From the IMG/VR virus record IMGVR_UViG_3300042887_000598, positions 5,921 through 69,920 of that record: a stretch of 64,000 nt of DNA. One strand, written 5' to 3'. The stretch comes from a virus. The translations under genes and the position numbers were made by a program. Positions 3,501-50,825 of the stretch are shown here, piece by piece. Positions within the stretch are counted from its first letter, which is position 1; the number at the start of each line of letters is the position of its first letter. The notes beneath the pieces are model-generated. The model was not told the origin of the DNA. It made no database searches and saw nothing but the letters and a program-made list of their open reading frames with translations.

Positions 3501-6500
3501 TGATTACCTGTCTGTTCGAGATTGCCTTGTTTCCGCCACAAGCCCCGGCGAGTTTTACGTTGGCGCAAACAGCACGAACGTATCCAACAACACTCGCGTT
3601 GTTTTTACAGCTACCCCTGCACCTCGCACACTGTATTGGGTAGGCGGCACAGGCAATTGGTCATCCACAACCAAGTGGGACACAACATCTGGTGGTGGTG
3701 GTGGAGCAGCTATCCCCACATCTTTGGATGCGGTCAACTTTAATTCGCTTTCCAACGCCACAGCCTACACAGCCACAATTGACGCTGGTGTAACGCTTGC
3801 CCGATGCGCCTCGTTCACAATGGCTGGCCCGTTAACTGGCAACGTGACCTTTGCTGGCACTGTGGGTATTGCCTTCCACGGCAACGTGAGTTTTGCTGCT
3901 ACGGGTATTACTCGGACGTACAACGGCTCAATGCAGTGGGCTGGCAACAGCAGTTACACGTTTAATACTGGTGGAAATTTGTTTTCTGGGTCTGCGGTTA
4001 ACGTTATTGGTATTGGAGCAACGTGGACACTTGCTAATTCTATATTTTTAGCTGGGAATATCTTAACAATTACTTATGGAACATTTGACACCTCCACCAG
4101 TAATTACCAAATAACCACAGGAAGATTAGATTCTGCAAATCGTAATATAAGGTCTATTTTATTAAACGGCTCAACAATTATTTCTGCTGCGCTAGGCGGC
4201 ACAACAATTCAGCTTGCTATTACTACAAATTTAACATTTAATGCGGGGACATCAACTTTTTCTTTGCAAAACGGCCTCGCAGCTATTAGTTCTGGCGGTT
4301 TGACTTTTAACAACGTCAGCTTTACTAGCACATCAGCATCAGGCATCACCATTACGGGTGCAAACACATTTAACACACTGTCGTTTGCTGGCCGCACATC
4401 TGTCGGCATTACACCTGTCACATTCAGTGCTGACCAAACCATCAGCACACTGACGCTGAACGCTGGAACAGCATCTGCCTACCGCACGTTCTTGGCATCT
4501 GACACCATCGGCACAACCAGAACATTGACGGTTGGCACTCTGACTGCTGGCGCTGCTGACATTGACTTCCGCGACATTACCATTGCTGGCGCTGCTGCAC
4601 CGATCTCAGGCACTCGGTTTGGTGACGCCAAAGGTAACAGCGGGATTACGTTCCCTGCGGCTAAGACTGTTTATTGGGCTTTGGCAACCAGCAACAACTG
4701 GGGAAGCACTGGATCAGGTTCGTGGTCTGCAACAAACGGCGGCTCGGCAGCGGCGGATCAGTTTCCTCTGGCACAAGACACGGCGTTTATACCGTTTGCC
4801 AGACCCAACAACAACCAAACCATCACAGTCAACGCCAACTACAACATTGGCACACTTGACATGAACGAGCGCAACGGCAGTGCGCTGGTGACGCTGGCGA
4901 CAGGTACAACTTTATCAACAGTTTACGGAAACTGGGTTAACGGCACAGGGACTACGCTGACAGGTGCAAATTTACTAACTTTTGCTGGGCGCGGCACTCA
5001 AACAATTACCAGTGCCGGTAGGACATTTACTCAATTTATTAGTGTGCAAAGTCCGGGCGGTAATGTTTTATTGGGGGATGCTTTATTATGCGACGGCTCT
5101 GGCACTTCACTTCGCGTTAACGCAGGGACTTTTAATGCTAACGGTTATAACGTAACACTTTCTAGTGGCGGTTTTTCGCTTTCAGTTGTTTCTACGGGCA
5201 GCAGAAATGTTAATGTTGGCTCTGGAACATGGGTGCTAGCAGGATCATCTTTTATATGGGACGCAACTGCATTGATTGGAATTACCGTAACAGGCACAGG
5301 CACGATCAATTTAACCTCTGCATCCGCCAAAACATTTTCTGGCGGCAGCATCTCTTACTCCGGCATCACCCTCAACCAAGGCGGCGCAGGTACGTTGACC
5401 ATTTCTGGCAACAATACCTTCAAGACCATCACCAACACCTACAGTGCTACAGGTGCAACAACCATTGCTTTGGGTGCTACAACGCAGACTCTGACGCAAC
5501 CTTGGACAGCAACAGGCGAAGCAGGACGGGTACTGACCATCAGCGGCACATCCGCAGCATCTCCCGGCATTTTGAGGTTTACCGGAGCAGGTCAAGCAGC
5601 CAACGTAGACTATCTGGCAATCAACAACGTCAGGGCATACAATTTGACAGACACTTGGTATGCTGGAGCCAATTCCACCAACGGCGGGACGTTAGGTTGG
5701 TACTTCATTGCCGCAGGCGGTACGGTTTACGCCGTCACCATCACCGAAACCGGAACAGGCACAGACAGCATTACGGCCAGCATAACTTTGCTTGGTTCAG
5801 TCTCAGAAACCGGAACCGGTACAGATTCCTTCTCTGCTGGTTTGGCGTACACCGGAGACATTACAGAGTCAGGCACTGTTACTGATGAAGTGTCTGCCAG
5901 ATTCCTCTTCCTTGGGGCTATCAGCGAAAACGCTACAGGCGAAGACCTTACAGCGGCCATCATGACCGCGCTTGGCAACATCTCTGAGACAGCCACCGGT
6001 ACGGACACGGACAGCGCCAATTTGACGGTAACACCAGCCGTAAGCGAGACCGCAACAGGAACCGACACCGAAAGCGCAAGACTGAGCGCAAACTCAAACA
6101 TCAGCGAAACAGCCACCGCAACGGACTCAGTGGCGGCTTTGGCAAGGCTCTTGGCTGCTGTTTCAGAGGCTGCAACTGCCACCGACCTCACAGACTCAAT
6201 CAAGGGCCTGTTTGCTTACATCGTTGAGTCAGCCAGCATCACTGACGCCCTGAACGCACCGGGCAGCACATACAACCCCTCCTTGAGCGAGACCGCTACA
6301 ACCACCGACAGCATCTCTGCGTTGGCCCGTTTTGCCGTTCAGGTTACAGAGTCGGCCAGCATCACCGATGCAACCGCTGCGTTTAAAGCTTACTTGGCCG
6401 CAATACTGGAGGCTGCTTCCGGCTCAGACGCCGTTTCTCCCCGTTACATTGCCAACCCAGCCATCAGCGAGACGGCCACGGGCGCAGACACAGACGCCGC

Positions 6501-33827: not shown

Positions 33828-34040
33828 TTATACGTCGAGCTCAGACTGGGCTGTTTCGCCGTAGGTCTCGACCTTGACGCCGTTGCTCAGTGCTTGGACC
33901 AGATCATCTTGCGATGCGACCTTGGCGCTGAATGCAGACTTGGCTACGTGCGTGATGGCTTGTGATGCCACTGTCGCTTTGACCAAACGTGTTGCGCCAT
34001 CAGTGCTAGTGACAATGTAGATGCGGGTTGATGTTGCCAT
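33828..34040 (-). CDS. hypothetical protein
   Basis: 70-aa ORF with GGAGA RBS. Confidence 0.65.
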   Translation of the reverse strand: MATSTRIYIVTSTDGATRLVKATVASQAITHVAKSAFSAKVASQDDLVQALSNGVKVETYGETAQSELDV

Positions 34041-34945
34041 TAGATTTCTCCTTGAGTTGGCTTGGTTGAAAGATACTTTTTATGCTGCGAACAAAATGCA
34101 GCGACTTGGCAAAACCCTTCGCAGCGTGTGCGTGCGCCGGGCCTGTGCTCGATGAGGAAGGTTTCACCCTTCTTTGCTTTTTCGTTGGCCTGAGCCAGTG
34201 CGCGTTCGGCGTCTTCTCGTTTCTCGTGGACGCTCTTAGCCCTGACTCCGCCATCCTTTTTCACAGCAAAGTATTCAGGCTTCTCCCACATCTCTTCTGG
34301 CGTGCATTCCGCGACATCACTGCCCACCTCAATGTCGAAGAAGGCTGACTCCTGCAAGTGGATGCGCTGCTTGATGTATTCGTCTTGGCGCTCCACCGGC
34401 CACAGAGGGATGTCGATCACCACGATGGGTGCCTTGGGGTATCCCTCGCGTCCAGTGTCGCGGCGTGCCCAGTCACGGACGATGGCAACGATCTGCAGCT
34501 TCTTGACTGTCACGCCCTTGGCCTTGTGCAGCAAGTAAGCGTAGCAGTTCAACTGGTTGTGCCAATCTTGCTTTTCATTCATGACGGTCCATGCACCAAC
34601 AGTTTTATAGTCCGACAAAACAACGCCATCCTCATGCACCTCTTGCAGATCAATTGCACCAGAGATGTTCATGCCGCCAATTTGGATGTGTATGCGCTCT
34701 TCAACAATGTGGTTTTCATCCTTACCGTGCTCAAGAATGTTATGGATGGCTGTTCCAAAAATTGACCAAACCATGTCCGAAGAATCTTCTTCCAGTTCGT
34801 CCCAGTGCCTTCTTTTTAGCTGGACAATTCTTGGGCTCGTCATAAGCTCCGTGACTGACAAGTTTGCTTTCCCTTTTGAATATTGCGGCCTTTTTAGGAC
34901 ATTCAAAATTGTTTCTGGAAGCCCGTGTTTATTGGTCAACTTCAT
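34040..34945 (-). CDS. PD-(D/E)XK (Cas4/RecB-like) exonuclease
   Basis: SVTEL..PR, GTAIH..LE, ISGAIDL...DYKT, QLNCY, C-terminal RC..FC.VA.FC; in an operon with ERF and SSB. Confidence 0.85.
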   Translation of the reverse strand: MKLTNKHGLPETILNVLKRPQYSKGKANLSVTELMTSPRIVQLKRRHWDELEEDSSDMVWSIFGTAIHNILEHGKDENHIVEERIHIQIGGMNISGAIDLQEVHEDGVVLSDYKTVGAWTVMNEKQDWHNQLNCYAYLLHKAKGVTVKKLQIVAIVRDWARRDTGREGYPKAPIVVIDIPLWPVERQDEYIKQRIHLQESAFFDIEVGSDVAECTPEEMWEKPEYFAVKKDGGVRAKSVHEKREDAERALAQANEKAKKGETFLIEHRPGARTRCEGFCQVAAFCSQHKKYLSTKPTQGEI

Positions 34946-35639
34946 CTTTTTTCTCCTTCTGTTTTGCCAAAAACGCCAGCCTTGATTGGCGCATTTTTTC
35001 TCTTGCCTCCGGGGTGTATCTGTACCCTGTTTTTGACCAAGATAGCTTTGTTCTCATCGTCTCTGATTTTGGTTTTCCCATGTGAGCTTTTGAAAGTTTT
35101 TCTTTGTGCTCATCTGTGAGCTTCACGCCCTTTTTTGAGGCAATCATTTTTGCCATTGCTTCCGGGTTTACGCTAACGTGCTTCGCCATCATTGCTGCCT
35201 TTACGTGACTCAGCATTGGCCTGCCCTTGTTTGGCGACGGCTTACCGAACAGAGGATGGTTTTCCCCTTTCATGCGTTCGGAAATTTTTTTCCTAAATTC
35301 TGGAGATTGGCTTTGCTGCCTAATTCGCGCAACATGCTTTTCGTATTGCTCTGGCGGCATTTTCCTTCCAGAGTTTCCCTCGCCTCCGTTCGTCATATTG
35401 GTAAGGCGGCACCCCATGTCTTTGAAGCATAAGATCAAAAATTTCTCATGCTCAAATGCCTCTTGCTCGGTGTTCCACCCTGCGCAAATCTCAACAACTT
35501 TTCCATGCTTGTTTGCAACGCTCTTCCAAAAATTGCTTCGACCGGACGCGGTCCTTGCTCGCGTAATGCTTCCTTTGCCGACATAAAAAACAGAGCCGTC
35601 ATCCGCCTGACGATGGATGTATGTGTAGAAGAGTTTCAT
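34929..35639 (-). CDS. GIY-YIG homing endonuclease with NUMOD3 repeats
   Basis: YTYIHR...FYVGKG, LTNMTNGGEG, HPLFGK, EHKEKLSKAHMGK; likely start MKLFYTY. Confidence 0.85.
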   Translation of the reverse strand: MKLFYTYIHRQADDGSVFYVGKGSITRARTASGRSNFWKSVANKHGKVVEICAGWNTEQEAFEHEKFLILCFKDMGCRLTNMTNGGEGNSGRKMPPEQYEKHVARIRQQSQSPEFRKKISERMKGENHPLFGKPSPNKGRPMLSHVKAAMMAKHVSVNPEAMAKMIASKKGVKLTDEHKEKLSKAHMGKPKSETMRTKLSWSKTGYRYTPEAREKMRQSRLAFLAKQKEKKDEVDQ

Positions 35640-36001
35640 TTTGCTCTTCCCATTTCTGCTGCTGCGCGGACGATGGCTAGGCGGGTTGCGGCGTAAGGGT
35701 TTTTTCCGTGCGGCACTACACACCGCATTTGATGCTGGATTTCATTTAAGTAAAAAACGACAGCCTCTTTACCGACTTCCGTGTATCCCCGGCTAACAAT
35801 CAAATCCAACCTCACCGCCAGTCGTAGCGCATCGCCATCGTCTGTGAGGGGGTCAAACCATCTTCTAGGCCATTCATCTGCTTTTGTCATGAAGCCAATA
35901 AATCGGTTATCACCTTGCTTGGTTACGTTGTCTATCTGCATGGGGATGATTTCAACGCCAGCCGCCTTTGCAGCCAGTTCCAATAGTTCTTTGTCAGTCA
36001 T
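35636..36001 (-). CDS. conserved phage hypothetical protein
   Basis: ELLELAAKAAG...FDPLTDDGDALRLAV...ATRLAIVRAAAEMG. Confidence 0.75.
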   Translation of the reverse strand: MTDKELLELAAKAAGVEIIPMQIDNVTKQGDNRFIGFMTKADEWPRRWFDPLTDDGDALRLAVRLDLIVSRGYTEVGKEAVVFYLNEIQHQMRCVVPHGKNPYAATRLAIVRAAAEMGRAK

Positions 36002-36234
36002 CCTTCACGCTCCATCGCCATGGTCTGCTTGTGTACTGCCATGAACAGGCTCACTACGTCGTGCAAGCTCATGCCCATTGCGGATGTGTATTGCGACAGC
36101 ATGATGGCTACTGCGGTGGCTGCTGTGCCGCCAGTGTGGTCTGCGTCGTCAAGGATCAGTGGACCAAACTTGTTGGAAATCTGAATCGCTCTGACAAGAA
36201 TTGCTATCTCGTCTTTTCTTTCGTCTTCAGTCAT
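35998..36234 (-). CDS. hypothetical protein
   Basis: 78-aa ORF with GGAGG RBS, overlapping both neighbours. Confidence 0.6.
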   Translation of the reverse strand: MTEDERKDEIAILVRAIQISNKFGPLILDDADHTGGTAATAVAIMLSQYTSAMGMSLHDVVSLFMAVHKQTMAMEREG

Positions 36235-36706
36235 TGCTTCCTCCTAATGCGTTTTGAAGCTCTTTGTTCTTCACCTTCATCATTCCGGCGAGCATGGAAA
36301 TCTTTGCTTGCGCATCTGCGTTCTTTGCCCTGCCGGAGTCAGTCAACATCTCTGTCTTTGTGAAGCTGACGGACATGGCCATCTTCTTCATCTCACGACC
36401 GATTGCCTTGATGCCAGTGTCCACCGCGTACTGGGTCTGAGACTCCGGCTCAATGATCACGTAAGAGCCTTTGTTGTCGGACGCCAAGAGCATGCAGTGC
36501 GCTGTCAACAAGATGTCCTTAATCTCTGATGTGCATTGCAAGAGCTCGAGGTCATGCCGACGGACATCCTCAATACTCTCCGGTGGCTTCACATTGCAAA
36601 GCTCGGCGATGCGCTTTCTGCTGATGGTGCTACCGTAGGTGATGCCCTCATCAATCAGAACCTTGACGGCCTGCTTCCAAGCCGGGAACAGTGTTGTCTC
36701 TTGCAT
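36227..36706 (-). CDS. partner protein of the RAMP-like gene (possible winged-helix plus coiled coil)
   Basis: 159 aa; start overlaps the RAMP-like stop (TGATG); YGSTISRKRIAELC...NKGSYVII. Confidence 0.7.
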   Translation of the reverse strand: MQETTLFPAWKQAVKVLIDEGITYGSTISRKRIAELCNVKPPESIEDVRRHDLELLQCTSEIKDILLTAHCMLLASDNKGSYVIIEPESQTQYAVDTGIKAIGREMKKMAMSVSFTKTEMLTDSGRAKNADAQAKISMLAGMMKVKNKELQNALGGSND

Positions 36707-37275
36707 CAGACGAACTCCACATTGAAGCGGCCAAAACGTGGGCGATAGTCACCCAAACCAATGAGAGCTCCAGCATCTTGCACGGCCTTCTTCACCTCGT
36801 TGATGTTGACCACTTCCTCGTTGACAACGATGGTTGCGTTCAGTGACCACTTGCGCAGGATGGGGCGGTAGCGCATGATCTTTGCCATGCCAACCTTGAC
36901 GCCACGGCAGTCAACGTGCTCTGGGTCATTCCAAAGTTGCTCAGGTGTTTTCTTTTCGTAGCCTGTGAATACAAGATCATCCTCCAGCACCTGCACGCCT
37001 TGCTTGAACTTCACGCCGAGCTTTTGCATCTTGGCTGCGGCGATCAGGCACGCATCAAGGTTTTGTGCTGGCAAGAAGAAGCCAACATCCTTGCGCCAGT
37101 AGCAGCCGCCGATGAACTCACTGCGTGCGATGGCGGTGTGGTCGTCGTCTGTTTTCTTGCGTTTGCTGGTCAGCTCTTTGTGAGCCTTGGCAAGTGGGTC
37201 GAGCGGGTTTGCGAAACGGTCCGAGTGCATGAGCAAAGGGGCCTTACCTGTCAGTTGAACTGCGATTGTTTTCAT
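36706..37275 (-). CDS. stand-alone Cas7/RAMP-like RNA-binding protein (Vipr-like effector)
   Basis: 189 aa from ATG 37275 (AAGGAAAAC RBS). N-terminal strand VQLTGKAPLLMH; FLPAQNLDACL resembles RAMP IPGSSLKG; C-terminal Gly-rich loop IGLGDYRPRFGRF. Motif-level recognition only. Confidence 0.75.
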   Translation of the reverse strand: MKTIAVQLTGKAPLLMHSDRFANPLDPLAKAHKELTSKRKKTDDDHTAIARSEFIGGCYWRKDVGFFLPAQNLDACLIAAAKMQKLGVKFKQGVQVLEDDLVFTGYEKKTPEQLWNDPEHVDCRGVKVGMAKIMRYRPILRKWSLNATIVVNEEVVNINEVKKAVQDAGALIGLGDYRPRFGRFNVEFV

Positions 37276-37295
37276 GATGTTTTCCTTGGTTAATT

Positions 37296-37862
37296 GATGC
37301 ACGCTTTGCATCGAGATGACACCTCATTGAAGTGTCATAACGCTACATCAGCCCTCGCCGCGCCACTCCCGGCCTTTCCGTTTCACGCCGTGCCTTGCCA
37401 GTTGGTGTTGCCACCGAGGTGAGCTCTCATTGAAAACTCACGACGCTGTAAACAGCCCATACCGCGCCGGTCCTTTGCCCGCCCAGCCTGACCTGTGCTT
37501 GCCGATCCTCTTGGTGTTGCCACCGAAATAGTTCCTCACCGAAGAACCATCACGCTGTTAACAGCCCAAGCCGCGCCTCTCCAATCCTTGCCTCTCCGGG
37601 TCTCGCCCATGCTCTGCACGTCTTGCCTTTGCGGTCCAGTGCTCGGATAGCACTCAGAAAGATTTCTCCTTCTGGCTGTTATCAGCCCTAGCCAGTCCCG
37701 ACCTCGCCATGCCTTTCCTAGTCACGCTACGCAATGCCGTATGGTGTTACCACCGAAATGACTTCTTCTCAAAAGCCATCCCACTGTTAACAGCCCCTGT
37801 CATGCCGTTCCCTTGCAAACCCGGCCTAGCCTAGGCCAGAGAATCAATTATCAGGTAGGTTG
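37296..37862 (-). ncRNA. array of five putative guide RNAs: (triplet+NN)n pentamer tracts separated by three-hairpin linkers (VIPR-like)
   Basis: No ORF >=60 aa in 37312-37812. Five tracts with strict 5-nt period (37355-37399, 37459-37508, 37568-37637, 37689-37738, 37797-37833), each ending GGGCTG on the minus strand; GGTG-GNAA-CACC hairpin in three linkers. Confidence 0.85.
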
Positions 37863-37868
37863 GACTCG

Positions 37869-37898
37869 ATTGTATCTGCTATATATCAGGTTCGTCAA
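37869..37898 (-). promoter_or_regulatory. sigma70-type promoter for the array and RAMP operon
   Basis: Minus strand TTGACG (37898-37893), 18 nt, TACAAT (37874-37869). A divergent TACAAT at 37906-37911 lies in an ATTGTATC/GATACAAT inverted repeat. Confidence 0.65.
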
Positions 37899-37945
37899 CA
37901 GCCGATACAATATATTTTCAAATTATTTTCATAAGGACAAACCCT

Positions 37946-38230
37946 ATGAGACGAGCCGCCCGAAGAGACGACAACGAGCAGGAGATCATCAAGGCCATGC
38001 GTGCCGAGGGTGCGTATGTGAAGGTGATCAATGACGAAGGGCTGTTTGACTTGCTGGTGAGCCACCGTGGCGAGACTTTGCTGGTCGAGGTGAAGGACGG
38101 CTCGAAGCCACCATCGGCCAGACGGCTGACGGAGGCGGAGCAGAAGTTCCATGACGAGTGGCCGGGATCAGACCTGTACATCGTGAACAGTGTGGAAGAG
38201 GCCATTGCCCTGCTGCGCACTTGCGGCTAA
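37946..38230 (+). CDS. VRR-NUC / Holliday-junction-resolvase-like PD-(D/E)XK nuclease
   Basis: RAARRDDNEQEI...FDLLV...LVEVKDGSK...LTEAEQKF. Confidence 0.8.
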   Translation: MRRAARRDDNEQEIIKAMRAEGAYVKVINDEGLFDLLVSHRGETLLVEVKDGSKPPSARRLTEAEQKFHDEWPGSDLYIVNSVEEAIALLRTCG

Positions 38231-38270
38231 ACTACAGGCGGATTTCATGGCGGTTCTCCTTGATGAACTT

Positions 38271-38300
38271 ACCCCCACCTCAGACGTGGGGGTTTCTTTC
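38271..38300 (+). terminator. rho-independent terminator
   Basis: ACCCCCAC-ctcagac-GTGGGGGT followed by TTCTTTC. Confidence 0.6.
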
Positions 38301-50367: not shown

Positions 50368-50825
50368 GGTTTAGGCTCCTTTGGTTGTGGTGGCTGCGAC
50401 AAACTTTCCCCGGCGGGTCACTGTGGCGCGGTCGTAGCAGTGAGCCCATTGCAGGGCGTTCTTGAGCGTGAGCGAGTGGTGCACCTTGTCGAATCCGTGG
50501 CCTTGGGTCTGGTAACCGAAGGTTCGGGCGATGATGGTGCGGATATGGTCGGCTGTGGTCATGTGGTGGGCTCCGTTTGTGCCCGGCGCTGTGGCCGGGC
50601 GGGGTTGGTCAATATCCTTCGGCGAAGTCTTCAAGGCTGGTCACCAGTCCGTCAAAGTCTTCATCCGGGCCGAGTAGGTCGGCGAGTGTGTGGACAATCT
50701 CGCGGGGATATTCCTCGCACAGTGTTTCGAGATAGTCGGCGCGGTCGGTGTAGCCGTTGTTTGTGTATGCGTTTTTCATGGTGTGGGCTCCAGTTGGTGC
50801 CCGGTGGTTAGCCGGGCGGGTTGGT

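Follow-up and report, generated by a model that had tools for sequence, protein, structure and literature searches.

VIPR systems, described in preprints from 2026, combine a phage-encoded minimal RAMP (Vipr), an accessory gene (vap) and guide RNAs (vrRNAs) and are reported to carry out CRISPR-like DNA silencing (10.64898/2026.04.26.720920). According to the text of that preprint, vrRNAs are ~100 nt long and consist of 9–16 YNNGG repeats with a structured and conserved tail at the 3′ end, for which a hairpin plus pseudoknot model was made by hand from five SUSP1-clade sequences. In a second preprint, SUSP1 Vipr protomers are described as polymerising along the vrRNA into a filament that is helical and right-handed, and in the cryo-electron microscopy (cryo-EM) structure the pseudoknot tail caps the vrRNA 3′ end of this filament (10.64898/2026.04.26.720927); the 2026 VIPR preprints also describe DNA targeting by SUSP1 through NN dinucleotides with a one-base skip. 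A further report regards RNAs with the same tail as able to form Vipr complexes (10.64898/2026.10.15.759431). The VIPR system and a structured capping tail are already in print. Here, a 64,000 nt stretch of viral DNA (IMG/VR record IMGVR_UViG_3300042887_000598, positions 5,921 to 69,920; hereafter the window) was examined. Its minus strand carries, between bases 37839 and 37296, five units that each comprise a G-rich tract and a tail of about 55 nt containing three hairpins. A preliminary description, made from the sequence alone, had called these hairpins linkers. Because the locus has a Vipr homologue, a vap1-like gene, YNNGG tracts and structured tails, we read them, with a probability of roughly 0.8, as structured tails at the 3′ ends of five vrRNAs belonging to a phage VIPR locus of type II.

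The 189 aa protein encoded beyond the array was compared with the Protein Data Bank using phmmer, and residues 1–188 matched 36pp_D, annotated as 'SUSP1 Vipr protein' (E-value 1.4e-44). The protein also falls in phrog_4652 (E-value 6e-67), a family annotated as function unknown, and homologues were found in 130 phage records, from Felixounaviruses, Pseudomonas phages Medea1 and LESphi2, and Gordonia and Mycobacterium phages. Identity to the Felixounavirus homologues was 39 % across 100 % of the length. An AlphaFold2 model built from 20 homologues had a predicted local distance difference test score of 90.2, and the best Foldseek matches to it were Csm3/Cas7 chains of type III and VII CRISPR complexes (E-value 1e-5, template modelling score about 0.5). 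The locus therefore includes a minimal single-RRM RAMP homologous to SUSP1 Vipr. Directly downstream of vipr is a putative vap gene, a 159 aa open reading frame (ORF) that matches phrog_5926 (E-value 3.6e-16) and has weak similarity (24 % identity, E-value 6e-6) to the gene following vipr in the Felixounavirus Shigella phage Z31.

The intergenic tracts, for which a period of 6 nt had been proposed, have a period of 5 nt when phased from the 3′ end, and comprise about 9, 11, 14, 11 and 10 YNNGG units, compared with the published 9–16. A conserved, structured 3′ tail lies behind each tract and begins right after its last GG. When the whole 69.9 kb genome was scanned for GG-periodic tracts, these five were found on the minus strand together with one weak plus-strand run, and none were found in five shuffled genomes. 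The plus-strand run (bases 50503–50542) was considered as a further vrRNA and set aside as probably due to chance; it is not followed by a tail and apparently lies inside a coding sequence on the opposite strand.

All 15 of the predicted hairpins, three behind every tract on the minus strand, were found, and the loop and stem sequences listed for them in the preliminary description all match the window sequence (Table 1). The five tails have folding energies of −21.6 to −24.4 kcal/mol (z −3.2 to −5.4), with only 0–2 of 200 shuffled sequences as stable, compared with −6.7 to −18.3 kcal/mol (z −0.4 to −3.6) for the complementary strand; the z-score for the whole array was −4.1. In the four window tails that can be aligned, 100 % of the cells in the 17 proposed pairs are standard pairs and six of the pairs change on both sides, compared with 36–63 % of cells paired in a control where the partners were slid by 1–3 columns.

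Covariation was then assessed across relatives, using 55 loci, 7 of them genome loci and 48 of them viral, with encoded proteins 46–97 % identical to Vipr. YNNGG tracts flank the vipr homologue in 53 of these, and in the other two the gene is at the edge of a contig. A covariance model (R1) constructed from four window tails with the three-hairpin structure gave 162 matches at an E-value of ≤1 in 58 sources, of which 115 were on the vipr strand and 78 of these were unique. Sense matches scored about 60–80 bits versus 38 bits or less for antisense copies. In an alignment of the 78 best matches (52 distinct), 99.0 % of cells were paired and 11/17 pairs changed on both sides; none of 500 shuffles reached the observed score, and only 35–58 % of cells were paired when the partners were slid. 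A second model (R2) was applied to the 30 of 59 sources with high-scoring R2 matches, giving 86 matches (60 distinct), with 98.6 % of cells paired and 12/17 pairs covarying. All nine pairs of hairpin 2 had changed on both sides in this second alignment, with up to six pair types per position. In hairpin 1, one of four pairs had changed on both sides, the closing G-C being replaced by A-U in five sequences, and in hairpin 3 two of four had done so, with the second pair changed from G-C to A-U in 15 sequences. The small number of covarying pairs in hairpins 1 and 3, only one or two each, arises because most of their positions never vary.

Covariance-model alignments lean towards the structure of the model, and for this reason a structure-blind control was made by aligning 77 of the 78 unique tails with MAFFT, one truncated match of 36 nt having been dropped. 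Hairpins 1 and 2 were well covered in this alignment, and hairpin 2 covaried at 8/9 pairs with 94.6 % of cells paired. RNAalifold run on the MAFFT alignment recovered hairpin 2 independently, and the top seven column pairs by mutual information were all hairpin 2 pairs. The earlier claim that compensatory changes indicate selection on RNA structure is thus supported, by covariation in the 60 distinct related tails as well as in 37 distinct tails that belong to a second class (described below). The related claim, that the linkers are conserved in structure and not in sequence, applies to hairpin 2 and to hairpin 3 in its outer part; sequence conservation is also seen in hairpin 1, at the hairpin 3 base and in the junctions (GG–GCUG, CAGCG and YCGGUG).

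The tracts behave differently from the tails. Full-length matches were found for four of the five window tails, each in 4–13 related loci, and for none of the five tracts, even where Vipr is 95–97 % identical. A wastewater metatranscriptome yielded a 1,436 nt contig of a relative with about 92 % identity; its vipr and tail regions match those of the window, and its tract regions have other sequence. Searches for targets used the published one-skip rule (NN plus one skipped base). In the phage's own genome, the best scores were not above those of shuffled guides, and in the collected related loci all five guides scored no higher than shuffled ones; these loci and this genome were the full extent of the search for guides 1–3. 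Exact patterns for guides 5 and 4 gave no hits in viral contigs, and these two guides gave none in five related phage records. Allowing up to three mismatches in five metagenome-assembled genomes produced three hits, compared with three control hits, and allowing up to two mismatches in 401 genomes of one family produced two hits, compared with five control hits.

Several observations weigh against the identification of the hairpins as vrRNA tails with a three-hairpin fold, including the bias of covariance-model alignments towards their own structure already mentioned. Hairpin 3 could be scored only in its short form in the MAFFT control, with 76.6 % of cells paired, and most of hairpins 1 and 3 is invariant. 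The unit 2 tail was not matched by model R2 at an E-value of ≤0.01 and has no full-length relative either. Relatives carry tails that lack hairpin 3, and hairpin 3 therefore cannot be essential for Vipr loading in general. In the Pseudomonas fulva prophage VIPR, the cryo-EM complex as described in the preprint text differs in having no 3′ marker comparable to the SUSP1 pseudoknot (10.64898/2026.04.26.720927). The RNA-library sequences are contigs from four wastewater runs that cover small shares of the window, carry no information on ends or strand and may contain DNA. The target searches made found no natural targets of the guides. Finally, when the tails were folded alone, four of the five (units 1, 3, 4 and 5) favoured an extended rod over three hairpins by 1–5 kcal/mol.

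In such a rod, hairpin 2 would form the tip and the strands of hairpin 1 (GGGCUG and CAGCG) would pair with those of hairpin 3 (CGGUG and CACC); alternatively, the tail may switch between the rod and the three hairpins. The rod is the minimum-energy fold for units 1, 3 and 4, and RNAalifold on the MAFFT alignment returned hairpin 2 together with the inner closing helix of the rod. The pairs the rod requires are also almost always compatible, the four inner pairs in 100 % of cells (52 distinct tails) and the four outer pairs in 97.5 % (60 distinct tails). None of these eight pairs changes on both sides, however, and the rod is broken, at column pair 6–91, in the same five sequences in which hairpin 1 has the compensated change from G-C to A-U. 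Of the 21 cases with U in column 93, 15 have A as the partner in hairpin 3, whereas the rod would need G·U in all 21. Nor is the rod uniform among the window tails, as unit 2 has three hairpins as its minimum-energy fold and unit 5 favours a rod in a different register, and tails of the second class have hairpin 1 with no hairpin 3 strand for it to pair with. The three-hairpin fold thus rests on covariation and not on energy, because the rod is preferred when the tails are folded alone. On this evidence the three-hairpin fold is strongly favoured, and a rod, or a switch involving one, appears improbable. The tail might change fold between the precursor and the assembled state, which could account for the near-perfect compatibility of the rod pairs.

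One hairpin 2 position is a U·G pair in 52 of the 60 distinct tails, which places the structure on the minus-strand RNA, as U·G would be an A-C mismatch on the other strand. The conserved U·G pairs and the asymmetry in folding energy between the strands both lead to this placement. They also bear on whether the hairpins act in DNA or in transcription, as terminators, attenuators, operator palindromes or a repeat of the repetitive extragenic palindromic type, rather than as functional parts of an RNA. In favour of this, the hairpins lie in a non-coding region and are short inverted repeats rich in G+C. Yet no minus-strand terminator-like site was detected in the region scanned (36600–38300), sense matches to the model score about twice as high as antisense matches, and the hairpins are tied to YNNGG tracts and vipr in nearly all of the related loci. 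With the conserved G·U pairs and the large strand asymmetry added, signals of this kind are a very remote prospect as an explanation for the hairpins.

The window tails resemble those of the SUSP1 type II VIPR in several respects. In both, on the basis of the published text, the tail lies directly behind the last YNNGG repeat and is conserved next to a hypervariable guide tract (10.64898/2026.04.26.720920, 10.64898/2026.04.26.720927), and in both the locus includes a homologous Vipr and a vap1-like gene. They differ in that the SUSP1-clade tail is described as ~40 nt with a hairpin and a pseudoknot, whereas the window tail has three hairpins in ~55 nt, and in that the SUSP1-clade repeats are GGT-rich and those of the window GGC-rich. 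Judged by eye, the tails of phage Z31 fit the description of the SUSP1-clade hairpin and pseudoknot, and model R2 found no match at an E-value of ≤0.01 in a Felixounavirus locus (L003). A mutual-information scan for a pseudoknot found no pair outside the three helices with both high mutual information and a high paired fraction. A tail of the SUSP1 pseudoknot type was therefore rejected for this locus, on the basis of three separate helices, no pseudoknot-like covarying pair and the silence of R2 in L003, no SUSP1 tail model having been used as a query. A helix extending hairpin 2 through the junctions was also considered and not retained; its outer G-C is invariant in 60/60 tails and hence uninformative, and its two inner positions pair in only ~60 %.

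The P. fulva prophage VIPR is likewise described as type II with GGY/NN vrRNAs in arrays in the text of the two preprints (10.64898/2026.04.26.720920, 10.64898/2026.04.26.720927), which sets out no structure for its tail. Model R2 matches all three tails of Pseudomonas phage LESphi2 and two tails of Pseudomonas phage Medea1, and because of these matches the P. fulva type may also have the three-hairpin tail. The VIPR preprint text was found to contain no account of the three-hairpin tail, of arrays with two tail classes or of a covariation model of the branch with GGC repeats; figures S8 and S9 and the data files of 10.64898/2026.04.26.720920 lie outside that search and may hold P. fulva tails.

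The tails without hairpin 3 make up a second class, which was found as internal tails in many relatives with a Vipr 70–80 % identical to that of the window. In this class the loop of hairpin 1 is GNRA, and hairpin 2 is long, with a CGA/UCG closing helix and the same U·G/U-A step at its apex; a single-stranded AGUGUU end follows. When 40 such tails (37 distinct) were aligned with MAFFT, pairing was seen in 97.6 % of cells and covariation at 6/16 pairs; in hairpin 1, 2/4 pairs covary, and the first pair is A-U in 22 tails, G-C in 12 and G·U in three. Two short motifs served to select the 40 out of 83 unique motif-anchored windows, and most of those not selected fall outside vrRNA arrays and resemble chance matches. 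Tails of the second class and three-hairpin tails share arrays with a single vipr gene in loci L026–L045 and L050 (for example, at bases 2306–2357 of L026). A three-hairpin match (31.6 bits, E-value 1.7e-5) was also seen on the minus strand of locus L043 (bases 834–893), which is the opposite strand, ~1.6 kb upstream of vipr and off the main array; this could represent a vrRNA that is separate or inverted.

Hairpin 3 of the last window unit had been described as replaced. A different stem is indeed present, and the relatives indicate that it is better read as a conserved, position-specific subtype. The vipr-adjacent tail was of this subtype, a three-hairpin tail with a 3 nt loop in hairpin 1 and a hairpin 3 stem of GAUGCA/UGCAUC or GAUACA/UGUAUC that itself covaries, in all 12 of the relatives' arrays examined, and it adjoins the ribosome site in relatives (model matches at about bases 2420–2481 of the loci). 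In two loci, the last unit before vipr is without the usual tail (L046, about 2450–2500; L047, about 2440–2500), and in L046 it has a stem resembling hairpin 1 and then a run of T, with the appearance of a terminator or attenuator.

The preliminary description suggested that the last set could allow autoregulation. In such a scheme, Vipr bound to vrRNA5 and its tail in the unprocessed transcript would hinder entry of the ribosome 20 nt downstream and the last tail would thereby also regulate vipr translation. In favour of this, the gene-proximal tail is distinct, conserved and next to the ribosome site in relatives, and the array and vipr are under one promoter. Against this, hairpin 3 of the last tail stops at base 37296, with the ATG at 37275 coming 20 nt later, and leaves the AAGGAA sequence uncovered; AAGGAA and the ATG both belong to an A-rich leader that is unpaired. 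In several related loci (L001, L006, L008 and L057) the tracts are downstream of vipr, and the proximity of a tail to vipr is therefore not general. A regulatory role in addition to that of a vrRNA tail is considered unlikely.

A further kind of tail was observed in Gordonia phage MakoManhole and Mycobacterium phage LittleE, where the GGC-repeat tracts beside the Vipr homologue carry a different, tRNA-like tail. It folds as a 6 bp stem stacked on a hairpin of 5–7 bp with a 7 nt UUCGANU loop, comparable to the acceptor and T arms of a tRNA. ARAGORN and Rfam made no call on these actinophage tails, and a full-text literature search found nothing pairing 'vrRNA' with 'tRNA-like'. Such tails might recruit tRNA-processing enzymes. 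Four kinds of tail were thus seen among homologues of this Vipr family, namely three hairpins in this phage and the Pseudomonas phages, two hairpins, a hairpin and pseudoknot in Felixounaviruses, and the tRNA-like form in Gordonia and Mycobacterium phages. One tentative suggestion, which we consider somewhat doubtful, is that vrRNA tails are interchangeable 3′ end modules and not one Vipr-specific handle. If this is true, the parts read by Vipr would be limited to hairpin 1 at the junction and the conserved hairpin 2 step, and the rest of the tail would set processing, stability or the filament end in each lineage.

For the window locus, we propose that a single promoter upstream of the array would drive a minus-strand transcript that includes the five units followed by vipr and the vap1-like gene. 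Each unit would supply a hypervariable YNNGG tract as the guide and a tail of ~55 nt, and Vipr, as a minimal Cas7-like RAMP, would polymerise along the repeats with one protomer per pentamer. The tail would fold into hairpin 1 (GCUG/CAGC stem), hairpin 2 (9–11 bp), the sequence of which would be free to vary except for the conserved U·G and U-A step under the loop, and hairpin 3 (GGUG/CACC or GAUGCA/UGCAUC). It would then end the filament at the RNA 3′ end and mark the boundary between units, where cutting of the precursor would give ~100 nt RNAs. The preliminary description had put forward processing or end-capping signals that delimit a filament. This idea fits the published role of the SUSP1 tail; for the three-hairpin type it follows from position and homology, and at this locus we infer that the tail caps the filament and directs processing. 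The starts of the units are spaced by 108, 121, 109 and 104 nt, and this range of 104–121 nt is compatible with the published vrRNA size of ~100 nt. With a single promoter, no terminator-like site detected on the minus strand over the region scanned and a spacing near that published size, it is probable that the units are cut out of a common precursor, and processing at the unit boundaries is plausible.

The conserved handles of class 1 CRISPR RNAs offer a broader comparison. They are derived from the repeat, often form hairpins, flank the variable guide, mark the processing unit and bound the Cas7 filament. The window locus is alike in having a conserved handle beside a variable guide and a protein of related fold, as indicated by the Csm3/Cas7 matches, and differs in that the guide is itself a pentamer repeat and the handle has three hairpins. 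Published VIPR systems also differ from class 1 CRISPR in that targets are read through gapped dinucleotides, as far as the preprint text describes. Of the neighbouring genes that were searched, none was recognised as Cas6-like. In type I and V VIPR, as described in the preprint text, a structured RNA module between the guides likewise sets the unit boundaries, but these modules are hammerhead ribozymes that self-cleave (10.64898/2026.04.26.720920), and there is no hammerhead match in the window array. No Rfam family, hammerheads included, matched the array on the minus strand at an E-value of ≤10. Tandem Repeats Finder called no repeat in the array because the units differ too much, and a similarity search of the array DNA against phage records gave no match.

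The coordinates of the features are set out in Table 1. The predicted array promoter is bracketed by a 12 nt inverted repeat, the arms of which are 92 % complementary, giving it the look of an operator. A divergently transcribed ORF of 94 aa on the plus strand has a weak endonuclease match (phrog_93, E-value 8.7e-5). Further downstream of the array genes, the minus strand includes an ORF resembling a NUMOD3 homing endonuclease and one resembling a PD-(D/E)XK or Cas4-like exonuclease.

Table 1. Features of the VIPR locus and its surroundings. Positions are in the window except for the last two rows, which refer to related loci; bit scores are for covariance model R1.
Feature	Position	Strand	Details
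Sigma70-like promoter (predicted)	37869..37898	-	TTGACG / 18 nt / TACAAT; upstream of array; sole promoter-like site in 36600–38300
Inverted repeat around promoter	37869–37880 / 37900–37911		12 nt
vrRNA1 repeat tract	37795..37839	-	about 9 YNNGG units
vrRNA1 tail	37743..37794	-	hairpin 1 37794–37783; hairpin 2 37781–37756 (GAGA loop); hairpin 3 37754–37743 (GUAA loop); 69.5 bits
vrRNA2 repeat tract	37687..37741	-	11 units
vrRNA2 tail, divergent	37639..37687	-	hairpin 1 37687–37674, sharing base 37687 with its tract; hairpin 2 37673–37656; hairpin 3 37653–37639; 15.1 bits
vrRNA3 repeat tract	37566..37635	-	about 14 units, some degenerate
vrRNA3 tail	37513..37565	-	hairpin 1 37565–37554; hairpin 2 37551–37527; hairpin 3 37524–37513 (GCAA loop); 78.7 bits
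vrRNA4 repeat tract	37457..37511	-	11 units
vrRNA4 tail	37404..37456	-	hairpin 1 37456–37445; hairpin 2 37441–37419; hairpin 3 37415–37404 (GCAA loop); 79.6 bits
vrRNA5 repeat tract	37353..37402	-	10 units
vrRNA5 tail, gene-proximal subtype	37296..37352	-	hairpin 1 37352–37342 (3 nt loop); hairpin 2 37338–37316; hairpin 3 37312–37296 (6 bp stem); 65 bits
vipr gene	36706..37275	-	189 aa, RAMP/Cas7-like; ATG at 37275, preceded by AAGGAA ribosome site
vap1-like accessory gene (putative)	36227..36706	-	159 aa; overlaps vipr stop codon
NUMOD3 homing-endonuclease-like ORF	34929–35723	-	
PD-(D/E)XK / Cas4-like exonuclease ORF	34040–34945	-	
Divergent ORF	37946–38230	+	94 aa
tRNA-like tails, locus L064	1375–1425, 2695–2757, 2815–2875		
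tRNA-like tails, locus L065	2696–2752, 2845–2895		

In the preprint text so far, the model of the VIPR tail comes from five SUSP1-clade sequences, and one cryo-EM complex shows the tail. The window locus and its 55 relatives add a tail fold backed by covariation for the GGC-repeat branch. The features common to these tails are a hairpin 1 that abuts the last GG, a hairpin 2 with a fixed U·G/U-A step and a UCGGUG or UCGAGUG junction, with hairpin 3 being optional in the relatives. These features can be used to annotate vrRNAs, to design minimal guide scaffolds and to choose mutations. The view of how VIPR works is unchanged, and the contribution is a modest addition to the anatomy of the tail.

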